NCBI RefSeq assembly: GCF_003334305.1
Contig: NZ_QOWS01000011.1
Reading direction: 5' to 3' (one strand)
Origin: Escherichia coli
GTDB lineage: Bacteria > Pseudomonadota > Gammaproteobacteria > Enterobacterales > Enterobacteriaceae
Length of the DNA: 64,000 nucleotides
Made by a program: the position numbers and the translations under genes. The notes beneath the pieces are model-generated. The model saw only the letters and a program-made list of their open reading frames with translations, was not told the origin of the DNA and ran no database searches. Shown here in pieces: positions 13,874 to 45,702 of this stretch; the first letter of the stretch is position 1; each line of letters starts with the position of its first letter.

Positions 13874-15280
13874 TTACTTGGAATTACTGTTGTTTTCGAA
13901 CTGCTGCGTTAAGTAGCTGCTGGTGCTGTTTAACGAGGTCATTAAAACGTCCAGTTGGGTAAATTGTTCTTTGTAGCGAGCGACCTGCGCATCAATGCGA
14001 TCGCTGGCGGCGTTGTAGTCTTTAGTTAACTTATTCAGGGTCTTACTAACGCCATCGGTAGCGGCTTTAATAATGCCCGTTGTCGAAAGCCAACTGGTCA
14101 GGTTGCTGCCGATGGTGGTTGTGATGCCGGTTTTTTTACCATCGCCAACAATCAATGCACCTACGCCGCTGGCATCTTTTTTCAGTGCAGCGGTGAGTTT
14201 GTCGGCATCCAGTTCCAGTTTGCCATCGCTGGGATCGGTCGTGATACCAATCTGCGCCAGCGTTTTATAGTTGGAAGAACTGACGGTATTACTCAGCATC
14301 GATTTCAACTGCGTCTGAATCGTCCGCAGCGTGGAGTCGCCGAGCAGTGCGCCATTGCTTGAACTCTGGCTATCAGCTCCCGCATCTACGGCGGTGTATT
14401 TGGTCAGGCTGCTGAAGGTATCTATTAGCGAGTTATAGGCATTCACCCAGTCTTTAATCGCCGTTTGCGCTTTGGAGGTGTCCTGAGTGATGGTTAGCGT
14501 CTGGTTGCCCGTGGTGACATCGTTCAGGTTCAGGGTGATGTTTTCCAGCGCGTCGCTGATGGTGTTGCTGCTGTTCTCAATGGCGACGTTGTTGACCGTC
14601 AGCTGCGCATTCTGGGCGGCGACCGAGACCTCCATACCGTTGCTACTGGCACTGGCGTCATAGCCCATAAAACTTTGTAGCGCATCATCACCGCTGACCG
14701 AGAGTGTCATCGCATTATCAAGGCCGGTGTCATTTGATGTGACTGACAGACGATATTCACCGTTACCCACGTTAATGATGCTCGCACTTACGCCCGCTTT
14801 TGCGTTGTTGATGGCATCACGGATCCCGCTTAACGACGAGTTAGCCGCGCTGATATCAATGGTAATCGGATCTTTGTCGCCGCCTTGTTGAATGGTGAGT
14901 TTGCTGTCGCTGGTGGCGATCGCCGTTTTCGTATCGTCTCTGGTGGTGCGCGTGGTCAGGGTTTGCGCCTGCGCCAGATGGGTGACGCTGATGGTGTATT
15001 TCCCGGCGATGGCGTTACCCGCGGTGGTGGCACTGAACGCGGTGGTGCTGCTGGTGGTGCTGGTGGCGGAAAAAAGATCGGCTTTAGACAATGCAGTATT
15101 GGCGGTCTGGAAAGTCGTCAGCGCGCTTTTCAGCGTACCGTAGGCGCTAAGTTTAGCGGTAAACGACGATTGCTGATTTGAAATAGGGGTTAGCGTCGCT
15201 TTTTGCGCGGCGGTGAGGCTATCAAGGATTGAACTTAAATCCAGGCCTGACCCGACTCCCAGCGATGAAATACTTGCCAT
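13874..15280 (-). CDS. fliD: flagellar filament capping protein FliD (468 aa)
   Basis: ORF translation MASISSLGVGSGLDLSSILDSLTAAQKATLTPI... Confidence 0.9.
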   Translation of the reverse strand: MASISSLGVGSGLDLSSILDSLTAAQKATLTPISNQQSSFTAKLSAYGTLKSALTTFQTANTALSKADLFSATSTTSSTTAFSATTAGNAIAGKYTISVTHLAQAQTLTTRTTRDDTKTAIATSDSKLTIQQGGDKDPITIDISAANSSLSGIRDAINNAKAGVSASIINVGNGEYRLSVTSNDTGLDNAMTLSVSGDDALQSFMGYDASASSNGMEVSVAAQNAQLTVNNVAIENSSNTISDALENITLNLNDVTTGNQTLTITQDTSKAQTAIKDWVNAYNSLIDTFSSLTKYTAVDAGADSQSSSNGALLGDSTLRTIQTQLKSMLSNTVSSSNYKTLAQIGITTDPSDGKLELDADKLTAALKKDASGVGALIVGDGKKTGITTTIGSNLTSWLSTTGIIKAATDGVSKTLNKLTKDYNAASDRIDAQVARYKEQFTQLDVLMTSLNSTSSYLTQQFENNSNSK

Positions 15281-15323
15281 GCGATTTCCTTTTATCTTTC
15301 GACACGTAAAACGAATACCGGGG

Positions 15324-15350
15324 TTATCGGCCTGAATTGCGCAAAGTTTA
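15324..15350 (-). promoter_or_regulatory. sigma28 (FliA) class 3 promoter of fliDST
   Basis: Minus-strand reading TAAACTTT-N11-GCCGATAA, a near-perfect match to the TAAAGTTT-N11-GCCGATAA consensus. Confidence 0.75.
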
Positions 15351-15442
15351 CGTTTAATTGTTTTTTTTAATAGCGGGAATAAGGGGCAGAGAAAAGAGTA
15401 TTTCGGCGACTAACAAAAAATGGCTGTTTGTGAAAAAAATTC

Positions 15443-15469
15443 TAAAGGTTGTTTTACGACAGACGATAA
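15443..15469 (+). promoter_or_regulatory. sigma28 (FliA) class 3 promoter of fliC
   Basis: TAAAGGTT-N11-GACGATAA about 75 nt upstream of the fliC ATG. Confidence 0.8.
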
Positions 15470-15545
15470 CAGGGTTGACGGCGATTGAGCCGACGGGTGG
15501 AAACCCAATACGTAATCAACGACTTGCAATATAGGATAACGAATC

Positions 15546-17252
15546 ATGGCACAAGTCATTAATACCAACAGCCTCTCGCTGATCACTCAAAATAATATCA
15601 ACAAGAACCAGTCTGCGCTGTCGAGTTCTATCGAGCGTCTGTCTTCTGGCTTGCGTATTAACAGCGCGAAGGATGACGCCGCAGGTCAGGCGATTGCTAA
15701 CCGTTTTACTTCTAATATTAAAGGCCTGACTCAGGCTGCACGTAACGCCAACGACGGTATCTCCGTTGCGCAGACCACTGAAGGCGCGCTGTCCGAAATC
15801 AACAACAACTTACAGCGTATTCGTGAACTGACGGTTCAGGCTTCTACCGGGACTAACTCCGATTCAGATCTGGACTCCATTCAGGACGAAATCAAATCCC
15901 GTCTCGACGAAATTGACCGCGTATCCGGTCAGACCCAGTTCAACGGCGTGAACGTACTGGCGAAAGACGGTTCGATGAAAATTCAGGTTGGTGCGAATGA
16001 CGGCCAGACTATCACTATTGATCTGAAGAAAATTGACTCTGATACGCTGGGGCTGAATGGGTTTAACGTTAACGGCAAAGGTACTATTGCGAACAAAGCT
16101 GCTACAGTCAGCGATCTGACCGCTGCTGGTGCAACGGGAACAGGTCCTTATGCTGTGACCACAAACAATACAGCTCTCAGCGCTAGCGATGCACTGTCTC
16201 GCCTGAAAACCGGAGATACAGTTACTACTACTGGCTCGAGTGCTGCGACCTATACTTATGATGCGGCTAAAGGGAACTTCACCACTCAAGCAACAGTTGC
16301 AGATGGTGATGTTGTTAACTTTGCAAATACTCTGAAACCAGCGGCTGGCACTACTGCATCAGGTGTTTATACTCGTAGTACTGGTGATGTGAAGTTTGAT
16401 GTAGATGCTAATGGCGATGTGACCATCGGTGGTAAAGCCGCGTACCTGGACGCCACTGGTAACCTATCTACAAACAACGCCGGCATTGCATCTTCAGCGA
16501 AATTGTCCGATCTGTTTGCTAGCGGTAGTACTTTAGCGACAACTGGTTCTATCCAGCTGTCTGGCACAACTTATAACTTTGGTGCTGCGGCAACTTCTGG
16601 CGTAACCTACACCAAAACGGTAAGTGCTGATACTGTTCTGAGCACAGTACAGAGTGCTGCAACGGCTAACACAGCAGTTACTGGTGCGACAATTAAGTAT
16701 AATACAGGTATTCAGTCTGCAACTGCGTCTTTCGGTGGTGCGAATACTAATGGTGCTGGTAATTCGAATGACACCTATACTGATGCAGACAAAGAGCTCA
16801 CCACAACCGCATCTTACACTATCAACTACAACGTCGATAAGGATACCGGTACAGTAACTGTAGCTTCAAATGGCGCAGGTGCAACTGGTAAATTTGCAGC
16901 TACTGTTGGGGCACAGGCTTATGTTAACTCTACAGGTAAACTGACCACTGAAACCACCAGTGCAGGCACTGCAACCCAAGATCCTCTGGCTGCCCTGGAC
17001 GACGCTATCAGCTCCATCGACAAATTCCGTTCATCCCTGGGTGCTATCCAGAACCGTCTGGATTCTGCGGTGACTAACCTGAACAACACCACTACCAACC
17101 TGTCTGAAGCGCAGTCCCGTATTCAGGACGCTGACTATGCGACCGAAGTGTCCAACATGTCGAAAGCGCAGATTATCCAGCAGGCCGGTAACTCCGTGCT
17201 GGCAAAAGCCAACCAGGTACCGCAGCAGGTTCTGTCTCTGCTGCAGGGATAA
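15546..17252 (+). CDS. fliC: flagellin FliC (568 aa) with conserved termini and a long central variable (H-antigen) domain
   Basis: N-terminus [54 protein letters not shown] and C-terminus ...[66 protein letters not shown]; central Thr/Ala/Gly-rich region. Confidence 0.95.
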
Positions 17253-17269
17253 TCGCCTGATTACGCGCA

Positions 17270-17294
17270 AACCCCGCTCCGGCGGGGTTTTTTA
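17270..17294 (+). terminator. rho-independent terminator after fliC
   Basis: Stem CCCCGC / GCGGGG with loop TCCG, followed by a T6 run. Confidence 0.75.
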
Positions 17295-17381
17295 CAATCG
17301 GCTTTTTGCGTAACCCCCAAATAACCCCTCATTTCACCCACTAATCGTCCGATTAAAAACCCTGCAGAAACGGATAATCAT

Positions 17382-17389
17382 GCCGATAA
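17382..17389 (+). promoter_or_regulatory. GCCGATAA (sigma28 -10-like) element upstream of fliA
   Basis: Exact GCCGATAA 26 nt upstream of the fliA GTG start; -35 not convincing, so weak. Confidence 0.35.
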
Positions 17390-17414
17390 CTCATATAACG
17401 CAGGGCTGTTTATC

Positions 17415-18134
17415 GTGAATTCACTCTATACCGCTGAAGGTGTAATGGATAAACACTCGCTGTGGCAGCGTTATGTCCCGCTGGTGCGTCACGAAGCATT
17501 GCGCCTGCAGGTTCGACTGCCCGCGAGCGTGGAACTTGACGATCTGCTACAGGCGGGCGGCATTGGGTTACTTAATGCCGTCGAACGCTATGACGCCCTA
17601 CAAGGAACGGCATTTACAACTTACGCAGTGCAGCGTATCCGTGGCGCTATGCTGGATGAACTTCGCAGCCGTGACTGGGTGCCGCGCAGCGTGCGACGCA
17701 ACGCGCGTGAAGTGGCACAGGCAATAGGGCAACTGGAGCAGGAACTTGGCCGCAACGCCACGGAAACTGAGGTAGCGGAACGTTTAGGGATCGATATTGC
17801 CGATTATCGCCAAATGTTGCTCGACACCAATAACAGCCAGCTCTTCTCCTACGATGAGTGGCGCGAAGAGCACGGCGATAGCATTGAACTGGTTACTGAT
17901 GATCATCAGCGAGAAAACCCGCTACAACAACTGCTGGACAGTAATCTGCGCCAGCGGGTGATGGAAGCTATCGAAACGTTGCCGGAGCGCGAAAAACTGG
18001 TATTAACCCTCTATTACCAGGAAGAGCTGAATCTCAAAGAGATTGGTGCAGTGCTGGAGGTCGGGGAATCGCGGGTCAGTCAGTTACACAGCCAGGCCAT
18101 TAAACGGTTACGCACTAAACTGGGTAAGTTATAA
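17415..18134 (+). CDS. fliA: flagellar sigma factor sigma28 FliA (239 aa, GTG start)
   Basis: ORF translation MNSLYTAEGVMDKHSLWQRYVPLVRHEALRL... with sigma70-family regions 2 and 4. Confidence 0.9.
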   Translation: MNSLYTAEGVMDKHSLWQRYVPLVRHEALRLQVRLPASVELDDLLQAGGIGLLNAVERYDALQGTAFTTYAVQRIRGAMLDELRSRDWVPRSVRRNAREVAQAIGQLEQELGRNATETEVAERLGIDIADYRQMLLDTNNSQLFSYDEWREEHGDSIELVTDDHQRENPLQQLLDSNLRQRVMEAIETLPEREKLVLTLYYQEELNLKEIGAVLEVGESRVSQLHSQAIKRLRTKLGKL

Positions 18135-18179
18135 CGTCAGTAAATGCCGCACTTTAATTTTGACTACCAGGAGTTCTTA

Positions 18180-18731
18180 ATGATGGTGCAGCACCTGAAA
18201 AGACGGCCATTAAGCCGCTATCTTAAAGACTTTAAACACAGCCAGACCCATTGCGCGCATTGCCGTAAATTACTCGATCGCATTACCCTCGTTCGCGACG
18301 GCAAAATAGTGAATAAAATAGAGATTTCCCGCCTGGACACGCTGCTTGATGAAAATGGCTGGCAAGTGGAACAACAATCATGGGCGGCATTGTGCCGATT
18401 TTGCGGTGATTTACATTGCAAAACGCAGAGTGATTTTTTCGATATTATCGGCTTTAAGCAATTTCTTTTTGAGCAAACTGAAATGAGCCCTGGTACGGTG
18501 CGTGAATATGTCGTTCGTCTGCGCCGTTTGGGGAATCATCTACACGAGCAAAATATTTCCCTCGATCAACTGCAGGACGGTTTTCTTGATGAAATCCTCG
18601 CCCCGTGGCTGCCCTCCACCAGCACCAACAATTACCGCATCGCGTTACGGAAGTATCAACACTATCAGCGTCAAACGTGTACCGGACTTGTGCAGAAATC
18701 CTCCAGCCTGCCTGCTTCTGATATATATTAA
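18180..18731 (+). CDS. fliZ: regulator FliZ (183 aa from ATG at 18180; longest ORF starts 18144)
   Basis: Translation MMVQHLKRRPLSRYLKDFKHSQTHCAHCRKLL...; follows fliA in fliAZ. Confidence 0.85.
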   Translation: MMVQHLKRRPLSRYLKDFKHSQTHCAHCRKLLDRITLVRDGKIVNKIEISRLDTLLDENGWQVEQQSWAALCRFCGDLHCKTQSDFFDIIGFKQFLFEQTEMSPGTVREYVVRLRRLGNHLHEQNISLDQLQDGFLDEILAPWLPSTSTNNYRIALRKYQHYQRQTCTGLVQKSSSLPASDIY

Positions 18732-18818
18732 ATAAGAATAAGATGTAGCGGAGTTGTTTTTGTGTTTACAAACAATGGCTCTACACTGCAAACAGACATA
18801 ACAACATTCGGGGTGAAT

Positions 18819-20710
<1,892 letters not shown>

Positions 20711-20724
20711 CTCCGGAAATGCTC

Positions 20725-21393
20725 ATGCAAGAAAGTATACAACTGGTTATTGATTCCTTGCCGTTCCTGCTGAAAGGGGCTGGGTATACGCTGCAACTCA
20801 GTATCGGCGGCATGTTTTTTGGCTTACTGCTAGGGTTTATTCTCGCGCTGATGCGCCTTTCGCCAATCTGGCCCGTGCGCTGGCTGGCGCGTTTTTATAT
20901 CTCTATTTTTCGTGGTACGCCACTCATCGCACAACTGTTTATGATCTATTACGGCTTGCCGCAGTTTGGCATCGAACTAGATCCCATTCCGTCAGCAATG
21001 ATTGGTCTGTCGCTAAACACTGCCGCCTATGCTGCCGAAACGCTGCGTGCCGCCATTTCTTCTATTGATAAAGGTCAGTGGGAAGCTGCTGCCAGTATTG
21101 GTATGACGCCGTGGCAGACCATGCGTCGCGCGATTTTGCCACAGGCGGCGCGGGTGGCGTTGCCGCCGCTGTCGAACAGCTTTATCAGCCTGGTAAAAGA
21201 TACGTCGCTGGCCGCGACAATCCAGGTACCGGAGCTGTTCCGTCAGGCGCAGTTGATTACCTCGCGTACGCTGGAGGTGTTCACCATGTATCTGGCGGCT
21301 TCGCTCATCTACTGGATCATGGCGACAGTGTTATCGACGTTGCAGAACCATTTTGAGAATCAACTTAATCGCCAGGAGAGAGAACCAAAATGA
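20725..21393 (+). CDS. tcyL: cystine ABC transporter permease TcyL (222 aa)
   Basis: Polar-amino-acid ABC permease with EAA-like loop; overlaps tcyN start. Confidence 0.85.
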   Translation: MQESIQLVIDSLPFLLKGAGYTLQLSIGGMFFGLLLGFILALMRLSPIWPVRWLARFYISIFRGTPLIAQLFMIYYGLPQFGIELDPIPSAMIGLSLNTAAYAAETLRAAISSIDKGQWEAAASIGMTPWQTMRRAILPQAARVALPPLSNSFISLVKDTSLAATIQVPELFRQAQLITSRTLEVFTMYLAASLIYWIMATVLSTLQNHFENQLNRQEREPK

Positions 21394-22142
21394 GTGCCAT
21401 TGAAGTTAAGAACCTGGTGAAAAAATTCCACGGTCAGACGGTGCTGCACGGTATCGACCTTGAGGTGAAGCCTGGCGAAGTAGTGGCAATTATCGGTCCG
21501 AGTGGTTCCGGCAAAACCACGTTGCTACGCAGCATAAATCTGCTGGAACAACCGGAAGCGGGAACCATCACCGTTGGCGATATCACTATTGATACTGCAC
21601 GTTCATTAAGTCAGCAAAAATCGCTGATTCGCCAGTTGCGTCAGCACGTCGGGTTTGTCTTCCAGAACTTTAATCTGTTTCCGCATCGTACGGTGCTGGA
21701 AAACATTATTGAAGGGCCGGTGATCGTCAAAGGCGAACCGAAAGAAGAGGCCACGGCGCGCGCTCGCGAGCTGCTGGCGAAAGTTGGGCTGGCCGGTAAA
21801 GAAACCAGTTATCCACGTCGTTTGTCTGGCGGTCAACAGCAGCGCGTTGCGATTGCGCGTGCTCTGGCAATGCGTCCTGAAGTGATTTTGTTTGATGAGC
21901 CAACGTCGGCGCTGGATCCAGAGCTGGTGGGCGAAGTCCTGAACACCATTCGTCAGCTGGCGCAGGAAAAGCGCACGATGGTGATTGTGACGCACGAAAT
22001 GAGCTTTGCCCGGGATGTTGCGGACCGGGCGATTTTTATGGACCAGGGGCGGATAGTCGAGCAGGGGGTAGCAAAAGCGTTATTTGCCGATCCTCAGCAG
22101 CCTCGCACCCGCCAGTTCCTCGAGAAGTTTCTGCTGCAATAA
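21390..22142 (+). CDS. tcyN: cystine ABC transporter ATP-binding protein TcyN (250 aa)
   Basis: Walker A GPSGSGKTT, ABC signature LSGGQQQR, Walker B ILFDEPTSALD. Confidence 0.9.
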   Translation: MSAIEVKNLVKKFHGQTVLHGIDLEVKPGEVVAIIGPSGSGKTTLLRSINLLEQPEAGTITVGDITIDTARSLSQQKSLIRQLRQHVGFVFQNFNLFPHRTVLENIIEGPVIVKGEPKEEATARARELLAKVGLAGKETSYPRRLSGGQQQRVAIARALAMRPEVILFDEPTSALDPELVGEVLNTIRQLAQEKRTMVIVTHEMSFARDVADRAIFMDQGRIVEQGVAKALFADPQQPRTRQFLEKFLLQ

Positions 22143-22371
22143 TAAGAAAAAATCAGCCCCGACGATTCACCAGTCGGGGCGGTGCGCCACTTCAAACGTG
22201 ATAAAACTGCTTAACAAATCAGCATAACTCATTAATAACATAAGAGAATGCGATGGCTTGCAAAAGTAATTCATTGCCTGAATAATATAAATTATATATA
22301 AATCTTATTTATGTGATAGTTTGAATTATCATTATAAATGATACTCACTCTCAGGGGCGTTGCGGTTTACT

Positions 22372-23094
22372 ATGCAGGATACGGATTTTTTCAGCTGGCT
22401 TCGCACGATGCTGTTGCGTTTTCAGAGGATGGAGGCCGCAGAAGAGGTCTACCATGAAATAGAGCTTCAGGCTCAGCAGCTGGAGTACGATTACTATTCG
22501 TTATGTGTTCGCCACCCGGTACCATTCACGCGACCTAAAGTGGCTTTCTACACCAATTACCCTGAGTCGTGGGTTAGTTATTATCAGGCAAAAAATTTTC
22601 TCGCAATTGATCCTGTGCTGAACCCTGAAAACTTTAGTCAGGGCCATTTAATGTGGAATGATGACTTATTCAGCGAAGCACAGCCGTTATGGGAAGCTGC
22701 GCGCGCACATGGTTTACGCCGCGGTGTCACTCAGTATTTAATGCTGCCAAATCGGGCGCTGGGCTTTTTGTCCTTTTCCCGTTGCAGCACGCGCGAAATA
22801 CCCATTCTTAGTGATGAACTGCAATTAAAAATGCAGTTACTGGTGCGCGAAAGTCTGATGGCTCTAATGCGTTTAAATGATGAAATAGTGATGACGCCAG
22901 AGATGAATTTCAGCAAGCGCGAAAAAGAAATTTTGAAATGGACGGCGGAAGGGAAGACATCAGCAGAGATAGCGATGATTTTGTCAATCTCTGAGAATAC
23001 GGTCAATTTCCATCAGAAAAACATGCAGAAAAAAATCAATGCACCGAATAAGACCCAGGTGGCCTGTTACGCGGCCGCTACTGGCTTAATTTGA
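22372..23094 (+). CDS. sdiA: LuxR-family quorum-sensing regulator SdiA (240 aa)
   Basis: Translation MQDTDFFSWLRTMLLRF... with autoinducer-binding domain and C-terminal LuxR HTH. Confidence 0.9.
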   Translation: MQDTDFFSWLRTMLLRFQRMEAAEEVYHEIELQAQQLEYDYYSLCVRHPVPFTRPKVAFYTNYPESWVSYYQAKNFLAIDPVLNPENFSQGHLMWNDDLFSEAQPLWEAARAHGLRRGVTQYLMLPNRALGFLSFSRCSTREIPILSDELQLKMQLLVRESLMALMRLNDEIVMTPEMNFSKREKEILKWTAEGKTSAEIAMILSISENTVNFHQKNMQKKINAPNKTQVACYAAATGLI

Positions 23095-23121
23095 TCGCTT
23101 TTCTTTCTGCGTGCCAGATGC

Positions 23122-23158
23122 AAAAACCGGCTGAAAGACACGCTCTCAGCCGGTTTTA
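23122..23158. terminator. bidirectional intrinsic terminator between convergent sdiA and yecF
   Basis: AAAACCGGCTGA ... TCAGCCGGTTTT: a 12 bp stem flanked by an A-run on one side and a T-run on the other. Confidence 0.6.
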
Positions 23159-23160
23159 TA

Positions 23161-23385
23161 TTACTGACGGTAGGCTTGTTTAATTTGCTTAACCGTTTTG
23201 GAAAATACTGCAGCCTGGGTTTCGTCTTCGATCAGCGCAAGCTGTTTTTCCATCTTTAACATCACGCGGCCCGCGTCAGCTTGTCCCATCGCCTGCAGCA
23301 TCAGCGTCAGCATCGCTTTCAGGCAGGAGACTTCATTTGCCAGTTCTTGATTATTCTCGGCAGTAGAAAAATCAGGCGTACTCAT
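23161..23385 (-). CDS. yecF: DUF2594-family protein YecF (74 aa)
   Basis: ORF translation [35 protein letters not shown]...; position between sdiA and uvrY. Confidence 0.8.
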
Positions 23386-23843
23386 TTATTTTCCTCGTCA
23401 TGTTGCAATGAAAATTTGCGGTGAAAAATGTTAAGGCGGCGGAGTATACCATAAGCTTTGCTAAAAATAGCAGTGGTTGTTTTTTGAGCGTGGTATCGGC
23501 AGTGCTATAAAATACGTTAATATAATGACCAATAAATATTTTTATCATGAATGTTTTTTGCCCGTATTGTTCGGGTTAATTAATGTTACATATTCAGCGG
23601 GATGATTTTCATTTTTGCTGAATAAAGTCAATTTTTGTCACATTTCATCGTAGGGCTTACTGTGAAACGATCCGGTAAGCCGTTGGTGACGGGCGTGACC
23701 ATAACTGTGGACAATCGAATTTACAAAAACGAGAGAAAAATCGAATACCCACCATTTTTAACGTTTCAAAGTTGCAATAAAAACCGCTAATATACGAATG
23801 ACTAACTATCAGTAGCGTTATCCCTATTTCTGGAGATATTCCT

Positions 23844-24500
23844 TTGATCAACGTTCTACTTGTTGATGACCACGAACTGGTGCGCGCAGGGATACGACGC
23901 ATTCTGGAAGATATAAAGGGTATAAAAGTCGTCGGTGAGGCATCGTGCGGTGAAGACGCCGTTAAGTGGTGCCGGGCAAATGCCGTTGACGTGGTGCTAA
24001 TGGACATGAGTATGCCGGGCATTGGCGGTCTTGAGGCGACGCGTAAAATCGCGCGTTCCACAGCTGATGTCAAAATCATCATGCTTACTGTCCATACAGA
24101 AAACCCTTTACCAGCGAAAGTCATGCAGGCCGGTGCTGCGGGCTACCTCAGCAAAGGCGCGGCTCCGCAGGAAGTCGTGAGTGCGATCCGTTCTGTCTAT
24201 TCAGGGCAGCGTTACATTGCTTCTGACATCGCTCAACAAATGGCGTTAAGCCAGATCGAACCAGAAAAAACAGAAAGCCCATTTGCCAGTTTGTCTGAAC
24301 GTGAATTGCAGATTATGCTGATGATCACCAAGGGCCAGAAGGTCAATGAGATCTCAGAACAGCTCAATCTCAGTCCGAAAACGGTGAACAGCTACCGCTA
24401 TCGTATGTTCAGTAAACTAAACATTCATGGCGATGTTGAGCTGACTCACCTGGCAATTCGCCATGGTCTGTGTAATGCGGAGACATTATCAAGTCAGTGA
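23844..24500 (+). CDS. uvrY: response regulator UvrY (BarA partner; 218 aa, TTG start)
   Basis: Receiver domain ([12 protein letters not shown]…) plus LuxR-type HTH; stop overlaps the uvrC start (GTGA). Confidence 0.9.
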
Positions 24501-26329
24501 GTGATCAGTTTGACGCAAAAGCGTTTTTAAAAACCGTAACCAGCCAGCCAGGCGTTTATCGCATGTACGATGCTGGTGGTACGGTTATCTATGTCGGCAA
24601 AGCGAAAGACCTGAAAAAACGGCTTTCCAGCTATTTCCGTAGCAACCTCGCTTCGCGCAAAACCGAAGCGCTGGTCGCCCAGATCCAGCAAATTGATGTA
24701 ACGGTTACTCATACAGAAACCGAAGCGCTGTTGCTGGAACACAACTACATCAAACTCTATCAGCCGCGTTACAACGTTTTGCTACGCGATGATAAATCTT
24801 ATCCTTTTATCTTCCTGAGTGGCGATACCCACCCGCGTCTGGCGATGCATCGTGGTGCGAAGCATGCCAAAGGTGAATATTTCGGCCCGTTCCCGAATGG
24901 CTATGCCGTACGTGAAACACTGGCGTTACTGCAAAAGATATTCCCCATTCGCCAGTGCGAAAATAGTGTTTATCGCAATCGCTCGCGTCCGTGTCTGCAA
25001 TATCAGATAGGGCGCTGTCTGGGGCCGTGCGTTGAAGGACTGGTGAGTGAAGAAGAATACGCTCAGCAGGTCGAGTATGTGCGCTTGTTTTTGTCTGGCA
25101 AAGATGATCAGGTGCTTACGCAACTCATTAGTCGTATGGAAACTGCAAGTCAAAATCTGGAGTTTGAAGAAGCGGCGCGGATTCGCGACCAAATTCAGGC
25201 GGTGCGACGTGTCACCGAAAAACAGTTTGTTTCCAATACCGGCGACGACCTTGACGTTATTGGAGTGGCGTTCGATGCGGGTATGGCTTGTGTCCACGTA
25301 TTGTTCATTCGTCAGGGCAAAGTGCTCGGCAGCCGCAGCTATTTCCCGAAAGTGCCTGGCGGTACGGAACTGAGCGAGGTGGTGGAAACCTTCGTAGGTC
25401 AGTTCTATTTACAAGGCAGCCAGATGCGCACCTTACCGGGTGAGATCCTGCTCGATTTTAATCTTAGCGATAAAACGCTGCTCGCTGATTCCCTTTCAGA
25501 ACTGGCGGGACGCAAGATTAATGTTCAAACCAAACCTCGTGGCGATAGAGCGCGTTATCTGAAACTCGCGCGCACCAATGCGGCGACGGCCTTAACCAGC
25601 AAACTTTCGCAGCAATCTACCGTTCACCAGCGGCTGACCGCGCTTGCCAGCGTGTTGAAATTGCCGGAAGTGAAGCGGATGGAGTGCTTTGACATCAGCC
25701 ATACCATGGGTGAACAAACCGTCGCTTCCTGTGTGGTGTTTGATGCTAACGGCCCGCTGCGTGCGGAGTATCGGCGCTATAACATTACTGGCATCACGCC
25801 GGGCGATGATTATGCGGCGATGAATCAGGTGCTGCGTCGGCGTTATGGTAAAGCCATTGACGACAGTAAGATCCCGGATGTGATCCTTATCGACGGCGGC
25901 AAAGGCCAGCTTGCGCAGGCGAAAAATGTCTTCGCCGAACTGGATGTCTCATGGGATAAAAATCATCCGCTGCTACTTGGCGTTGCCAAAGGAGCAGATA
26001 GGAAGGCTGGGCTGGAAACGCTGTTCTTTGAGCCGGAAGGTGAGGGATTCAGTTTGCCGCCAGATTCTCCCGCGCTGCATGTTATCCAGCATATTCGTGA
26101 TGAATCTCACGATCACGCGATTGGTGGGCACCGTAAGAAACGGGCGAAGGTCAAAAATACCAGTTCCCTGGAAACCATTGAAGGCGTCGGGCCAAAACGT
26201 CGGCAAATGTTGTTGAAATATATGGGCGGTTTGCAAGGTTTACGTAACGCCAGCGTTGAGGAAATTGCAAAAGTGCCGGGTATTTCGCAAGGTCTGGCAG
26301 AAAAGATCTTCTGGTCGTTGAAACATTGA
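24497..26329 (+). CDS. uvrC: excinuclease ABC subunit C UvrC (610 aa, GTG start)
   Basis: GIY-YIG N-terminal domain (…[24 protein letters not shown]…) and C-terminal helix-hairpin-helix. Confidence 0.95.
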
Positions 26330-45589: not shown

Positions 45590-45615
45590 TTCTCCCGATT
45601 TCCTCAATTGAAATG

Positions 45616-45646
45616 AACCCGATGATCTGCGCATCGGGTTTTTTAT
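45616..45646 (+). terminator. rho-independent terminator after cheW
   Basis: AACCCGATG-ATCTGCG-CATCGGGTT followed by a T-run. Confidence 0.75.
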
Positions 45647-45675
45647 TTCAATTTCGCGGCGGGTGGCATCAGCAA

Positions 45676-45702
45676 TAAAGTTTCCCCCCTCCTTGCCGAT
45701 AA
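45676..45702 (+). promoter_or_regulatory. sigma28 promoter of tar-tap-cheRBYZ
   Basis: TAAAGTTT-N11-GCCGATAA, a perfect consensus match, about 30 nt upstream of the tar ATG. Confidence 0.85.

Follow-up and report, generated by a model that had tools for sequence, protein, structure and literature searches.

An intact fliC gene of H45 genotype in Escherichia coli and probable recombination around its variable region

Which flagellin type is encoded by a fliC gene whose ends resemble those of K-12 and whose centre does not, and whether that centre has moved among lineages, are the questions raised by the locus described here, which lies in a 64,000-nucleotide stretch of E. coli DNA (the window, that is, the whole stretch that was analysed). 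A sequence-only reading had taken the gene for an intact flagellin gene of 568 codons with conserved ends and a Thr/Ala/Gly/Ser-rich middle, for a serotype allele other than that of K-12, probably acquired by recombination, and for a candidate in strain typing. All 64,000 bases of the window are found, as reverse complement and with 0 mismatches, at positions 2752481–2816480 of E. coli A7 (NZ_CP028767.1), from orangutan faeces.

The fliC gene and its expression signals

The window holds the canonical E. coli fliC locus in reverse orientation, with fliD-fliS-fliT-amyA on the minus strand to the left of fliC and fliA-fliZ-tcyJ-dcyD on the plus strand to its right. The gene itself occupies positions 15546–17252 of the plus strand, stop codon included, as an uninterrupted open reading frame that starts with ATG and encodes an intact flagellin of 568 residues, which the A7 record annotates as 'FliC/FljB family flagellin' (WP_001764597.1). 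Indeed, the NCBIfam profile of this family (NF005953) is matched over residues 1–568 with 814.7 bits against a cut-off of 619, and three Pfam domains are recognized, namely Flagellin_N (PF00669, residues 5–140, E = 1.5e-46), 'FliC' (PF12445, residues 326–472), and Flagellin_C (PF00700, residues 482–566, E = 1.9e-31). By its domains, its NF005953 score, its locus, and its promoter, the predicted product of 15546–17252 clearly belongs to the FliC/FljB family flagellins, and the full-length reading frame first claimed for it is borne out by the intact frame and by a family profile that spans it from end to end.

Three parts can be delineated along the gene: a 5' conserved part (15546–16070, plus strand, residues 1–175) carrying Flagellin_N, a hypervariable region (16071–16958, plus strand, residues 176–471) that would correspond to the outer domains determining the H45 antigen, and a 3' conserved part (16959–17249, plus strand, residues 472–568) carrying Flagellin_C and corresponding to the C-terminal halves of D1 and D0. 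The flagellin of E. coli O157:H7 (7sn4) aligns with the protein end to end (E = 1.3e-201), with 98.9% identity over residues 1–175, 96.9% over residues 472–568, and 40–45% in the middle. The composition follows the same division, since Thr (20.3%), Ala (17.2%), Gly (11.5%), and Ser (8.8%) make up 57.8% of residues 176–471 against 35–38% of the two conserved ends, and a composition count of residues 176–471 gave no Cys, Trp, His, or Met. The division into conserved ends, 97–99% identical to those of H7, and a Thr/Ala/Gly/Ser-rich middle had been anticipated correctly. The conserved N- and C-terminal parts would build the D0/D1 helical core that polymerizes into the filament, and the middle, of about 296 residues, would fold into outer domains that are rich in beta structure, lie at the surface of the filament, and bear the H-antigen specificity.

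Upstream of the gene, a sigma-28 (FliA) class 3 promoter-like site, TAAAGGTT-N11-GACGATAA, can be read at 15443–15469 on the plus strand, within a stretch that is 99–100% identical to K-12; we take it to be the fliC promoter, on the strength of the established sigma-28 consensus, TAAAGTTT-N11-GCCGATAA. A divergent promoter-like site that would serve fliD-fliS-fliT, TAAACTTT-N11-GCCGATAA, lies at 15324–15350 on the minus strand and matches the sigma-28 pattern exactly; the window has 2 such exact matches, where 0.03 would arise by chance. Downstream of the gene, a putative intrinsic terminator (17266–17294, plus strand) consists of a G+C-rich hairpin followed by a T run, with a terminator-like site at 17276–17288 and its T tail. 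In the A7 record, every flagellar, motor, and chemotaxis gene that lies in the window is marked as intact (flhDC, motAB, the che genes, flhBAE, and fliD to fliL), fliM being cut by the window end. It is therefore plausible that fliC is expressed in A7, in which case it would be transcribed from the sigma-28 class 3 promoter up to the intrinsic terminator.

Elsewhere in the window, a perfect sigma-28 consensus, TAAAGTTT-N11-GCCGATAA, is located between cheW and tar (45676–45702, plus strand), presumably as the class 3 promoter of the tar-tap-cheRBYZ operon, and is overlapped on the opposite strand by an Rfam match to the C0465 RNA (45609–45686, minus strand). The Rfam scan also placed the MicL sRNA at 59677–59984, inside or beside cutC. 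These features, the C0465 match with its sigma-28 site as well as MicL, are ordinary for E. coli. The yedK gene (8663–9331, minus strand), which encodes an SOS-response-associated peptidase with a protective role at abasic sites, is interrupted in frame at codon 184 by a stop that stands in place of the Glu codon of K-12; the stop removes 38 residues, and the A7 record marks the gene as a pseudogene ('internal stop'). The yedK gene of strain MP1 is frameshifted.

The H45 genotype and its carriers

The K-12 flagellin (H48; PDB 8cxm) was put at 498 residues in the sequence-only reading, which agrees with the 1,497 nucleotides and 498 codons of fliC in K-12 MG1655. The K-12 gene has its locus and promoter region in common with the gene of the window, but its product is 70 residues shorter and the centres of the two proteins do not align. 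At the nucleotide level, identity to the K-12 locus in blastn is 97.4% up to 16072, 90.6% over 16980–17255, and 98.0% from 17272, with no match to that locus over 16073–16979; consistently, a 100-column identity profile falls from 98–100% to 24–64% between about 16000 and 17040. At the protein level, BLASTP against K-12 FliC aligns the ends only (residues 1–212 and 464–568, with 82–83% identity) and leaves residues of about 213–463 unaligned. The limits first proposed for the variable region, 16071–16960 or residues 176–471, approximate those at which K-12 similarity stops (16072) and resumes (16980). On these comparisons, the centre of the gene appears not to be homologous to that of the K-12 (H48) type, and the claim of a non-K-12 allele stands, the centre being without a K-12 match in an uninterrupted reading frame.

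Among 5,426 complete E. coli genomes, the central 890 nucleotides were found in 86 (1.6%), all at 98.2% identity or more, with 25 carriers at 99% or more and 61 at 98.2–98.8%. A sensitive blastn search (word size 11) of the same 5,426 genomes gave no further genome with the variable region below 98.2%, and because matches are all-or-nothing in this way the allele forms a discrete class. Several carriers have been typed or named by others. The central DNA of 2013C-4282, which is OG9:H45 in silico and belongs to cryptic clade I (PMC10100065), is 100% identical to that of the window; IAI39, which is O7:H45:K1, phylogroup F, ST62 (PMC8281228), is 99.7% identical, with 3 nucleotide differences and 0 amino-acid differences; and MIN10, the RefSeq record of which is named 'Escherichia coli O126:H45 strain MIN10', is 98.4% identical in the centre. 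Because the centre is near-identical to those of these three strains, the fliC genotype, as called through typed strains rather than through the type strain (4106-54, GenBank AY250023.1; PMC4753304) or serology, is H45. Furthermore, fliC-H45 of IAI39, CE10, 2013C-4282, MP1, and MIN10 likewise encodes 568 residues in a locus with the gene order of the window, and the variable-region protein of IAI39 and CE10 is identical to that of the window; what distinguishes the window copy from other H45 copies is its own, mostly silent, substitution pattern in the 5' part at 15680–15962, together with its own version of the short 3' UTR. A mass-spectrometric H-typing (MS-H) paper gives coverage values only, with no H45-specific peptide sequences (PMC3578835). 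The allele is an already known, catalogued type and not a new one. The earlier view that it is a serotype allele different from that of K-12 is confirmed by the identities of 100%, 99.7%, and 98.4% to strains typed or named H45, and its proposal for strain typing was correct, though fliC H-genotyping is a long-established practice.

The exact FliC protein is encoded on 538 contigs, and its 90% protein cluster has 297 members, Shigella boydii, S. dysenteriae, and S. flexneri among them. O157:H45 enteropathogenic strains belong to phylogroup B2, so that carriers of H45 are spread over different lineages. In strains G1/2 (NZ_CP060083.1) and G8 (NZ_CP060057.1), matches to the variable region cover only 88% of the query and fall at two sites in each genome, a pattern suggestive of an interrupted fliC. 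One H45 fliC copy was counted on a 'plasmid', NZ_CP090612.1 (420,355 bases, from pig). A mobile, plasmid-borne flagellin was rejected in this case, since the record contains in full, at 98.2% identity, the chromosomal neighbourhood that runs from uvrC through fliC to fliF and is more likely a fragment of a chromosome than a plasmid.

Probable exchange of the variable region and alternative readings

It is reportedly established since the work of Reid et al. in 1999 and Wang et al. in 2003 that flagellin diversity has two levels and that flagellin genes undergo recombinational exchange. According to Hu and Reeves, the forms of this region cannot be aligned across types but hardly vary inside one type, and serotypes switch through recombination events whose ends fall in the conserved regions (PMC7018530). 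To place the gene of the window in this frame, we aligned positions 8700–25000 (about 16 kb) with five H45 carriers, 2013C-4282, MP1, Z0117EC0005, IAI39, and GF60. In 2013C-4282, MP1, and Z0117EC0005, the flanks diverge from the window by 1.64–1.73%, while the stretch 15963–17248 holds 2–4 differences against 21–22 expected, a deficit with a Poisson P of 6e-8 to 4e-6 under a test that presumes uniform divergence, some 250-nucleotide bins of the flanks likewise holding 0–1 differences. In these same strains, the longest identical runs of the 16 kb are 15963–16976 (1,014 nucleotides) or 16071–17248 (1,178 nucleotides), and they lie over the portion of fliC in which E. coli strains otherwise vary most.

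The surroundings of this tract are of a different kind. The 283 nucleotides of 15680–15962 hold 10–13 substitutions, mostly silent, with respect to 2013C-4282, MP1, Z0117EC0005, and IAI39, and 17 with respect to GF60, and the 3' UTR just downstream of the gene holds about 22 differences with respect to the other carriers with a short UTR. MP1 illustrates this pattern, as its protein is identical to that of the window yet its nucleotides differ in 15680–15962. Since substitution clusters flank the shared tract on both sides, the tract ends within the conserved parts of fliC or at their margin, and since the cluster at 15680–15962 adjoins the identical run, the 5' conserved part has a history other than that of the variable region. 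On this substitution pattern, the 5' part of fliC is a mosaic. Recent exchange is not visible in every pair of carriers: the contrast is weaker for IAI39, which shows 5 differences against 18.8 expected and has its longest identical runs elsewhere, and there is none for GF60, a representative of a second H45 sublineage with 31 differences against 21.7 expected. Alleles of the GF60 type differ from the window in 1.3–1.6% of nucleotides but in 1 of 296 residues and, judging from changes that are nearly all silent, purifying selection acts within the H45 type. Recombination of the H45 region, in either direction, is supported by a variable region that is identical in different lineages amid flanks that diverge by 1.5–1.7%, and the earlier suggestion of recombination is upheld by the same observation. 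Homologous recombination would carry the H45 variable region from one E. coli lineage to another, unrelated one, with crossovers that fall within the conserved ends of fliC or close to them, and because of the position of these crossovers the same middle would be met amid differing neighbour genes.

Could the variable region instead be an old polymorphism inherited vertically with its chromosome, its low diversity in the middle being the work of purifying selection? Such a history would account for the single residue changed out of 296 at 1.3–1.6% nucleotide divergence within H45, and for the GF60 variable region being about as divergent as its flanks (31 differences against the 21.7 expected); it would also fit the age of the H45 form itself, fliC of Atlantibacter hermannii being 71% identical at the nucleotide level against 74% for amyA. 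However, synonymous differences survive purifying selection, and yet 1,014–1,178 nucleotides are identical beside flanks of about 1.7% divergence, in one case in a strain of cryptic clade I (2013C-4282), while the 10–13 differences within the 283 nucleotides that adjoin the identical run mark a boundary. Vertical inheritance is, in our judgement, very unlikely to explain this pattern.

Two further readings concern the gene rather than its history. An intact fliC may nonetheless be silent or non-functional, as is the H45-like fliC of non-motile Shigella; the 90% cluster does hold proteins of non-motile S. boydii, S. dysenteriae, and S. flexneri, one of them of 560 residues, and the matches in G1/2 and G8 cover 88% of the query in two places. 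The gene of the window has, for its part, a full-length reading frame with promoter-like and terminator-like signals, in a 64-kb neighbourhood where flagellar, motor, and chemotaxis genes are annotated as intact, and we regard its silence as very improbable. As to a new or unusual H type, with a variable region outside the recognized H antigens of E. coli, a hint is the generic name given by PGAP, 'FliC/FljB family flagellin', where K-12-like genes receive 'H48 family flagellin FliC'. With 98.2–100% identity in 86 complete genomes, three of which were typed or named H45 by others, and with the exact protein already present on 538 contigs, this reading has next to no probability left and is, for practical purposes, refuted by its H45-typed carriers. 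The reading that we hold with high confidence is that of an intact fliC-H45 with a sigma-28 promoter and a surface middle region, in which the H45 region would have spread across lineages by homologous recombination.

Relatives, predicted outer domains, and the 3' UTR

The closest variable region found outside Escherichia and Shigella is that of A. hermannii, the flagellin of which has 65.6% protein identity across the whole variable region; flagellins of Achromobacter have 44–45% identity in this region. These relatives came from a word-index search of proteins in which the variable region was the sole query; with only 8,000 candidates scored, it gave 13 matches and missed the full-length cluster of the protein itself, and is therefore no census of relatives. 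The A. hermannii contig DALZVC010000038.1 (4001–5452) aligns with positions 15543–16983 of the window over a contiguous 1,449 nucleotides at 71% identity; the other H types of E. coli, by contrast, have variable regions with no nucleotide similarity to that of the window. The genes that neighbour fliC in A. hermannii have the arrangement of the window (amyA-fliT-fliS-fliD / fliC), with nucleotide identities of 74% for amyA and 64–66% for fliD and fliS. The N-terminal part of its FliC is 87% identical to that of the window instead of 99–100%, and fliC lies at the end of the contig, where the C-terminus is not reliable. Because the identity of fliC is close to that of amyA, the H45 form may be as old as the split between the genera, or may have been exchanged about as long ago. 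This comparison suggests that the H45-like variable region could be a form common to several genera.

Relationships at greater distance become apparent from proteins and predicted folds. No nucleotide similarity between the variable regions of H45 and H7 was found by sensitive blastn, and the kinship with H7 and H6 is visible at the protein and fold level only. HMMER alignments run end to end with 7sn4, 7sn7, and 7sqd, although the outer region of the H7 flagellin is 17 residues longer than that of H45 and several indels separate the two. In an AlphaFold model of FliC built on a 12-sequence alignment, residues 180–470 are beta-rich with block-mean pLDDT values of about 65–95, mostly 80–95, and the helical ends have lower confidence. 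The best Foldseek matches of this model are 7sn4 (H7), 9n59 (Azotobacter vinelandii), 7sqd (Achromobacter), and 7sn7 (enteropathogenic E. coli, H6); the global TM-scores of 0.33–0.48, with an rmsd of about 50 Å, reflect no meaningful superposition, so that ranking and E-values were used, and the scores are low because the monomer model orients its domains differently from the filament structures.

By the alignments, the 40–45% identity, and the Foldseek matches, the H45 outer domains are homologous to those of H7, H6, and Achromobacter and, by this homology, the H45 flagellin would share their multi-domain outer architecture. In filaments of H7, H6, and Achromobacter, outer domains pair into a sheath around the core and thereby affect waveform and tumbling (PMC8931119). 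We infer that the H45 outer domains might form such a filament sheath as well. In the network of Hu and Reeves, H45 falls in a cluster far from the main clusters of E. coli flagellins (PMC7018530), a placement that fits poorly with the full-length alignment to H7 and H6 and with the relationship to A. hermannii seen here.

A last difference from K-12 resides in the 3' UTR. In the window, the fliC-fliA intergenic region (17253–17414) begins with a fliC 3' UTR of about 42 nucleotides, in which the stop codon is followed by a short spacer and the terminator hairpin. In the alignment to K-12 the hairpin is kept, while the extra stretch of about 155 nucleotides made of REP elements in the K-12 3' UTR is absent from the window. 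This K-12 stretch is annotated as the small RNA FliX, of which FliX-S, of about 100 nucleotides, contains a single REP and acts as a repressor of genes for flagella and ribosomal proteins (PMC10578931). Because the REP-containing 3' UTR is absent, the strain would be without most of FliX, and the feedback regulation by FliX of K-12 may not operate in strains with the short UTR. An Rfam scan of the window gave no match in or beside fliC. In an evenly spaced sample of complete genomes, a short one-piece form (about 156 nucleotides) and a long two-piece form (about 313 nucleotides) are both frequent. The short form is present in four of the five H45 carriers that were aligned, and the long form in Z0117EC0005; the version of the window is matched at 99% or more by 3 genomes only.

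Taken jointly, these features sketch H45 as an old cross-genus form, a near-invariant cassette within E. coli, and a probable builder of a sheath like that of H7 and H6, with FliX feedback possibly absent; we advance this combined picture tentatively, at somewhat below an even chance. The likeness to sheath-forming flagellins, and a 3' UTR that naturally lost or never had the FliX region, are small leads for specialists. The assignment of an H45 genotype to the A7 genome is of use for serotype prediction and epidemiology and adds little beyond annotation. The locus offers a clean textbook example of flagellin forms that are unalignable between types, near-invariant within a type, and would be exchanged through their conserved ends.
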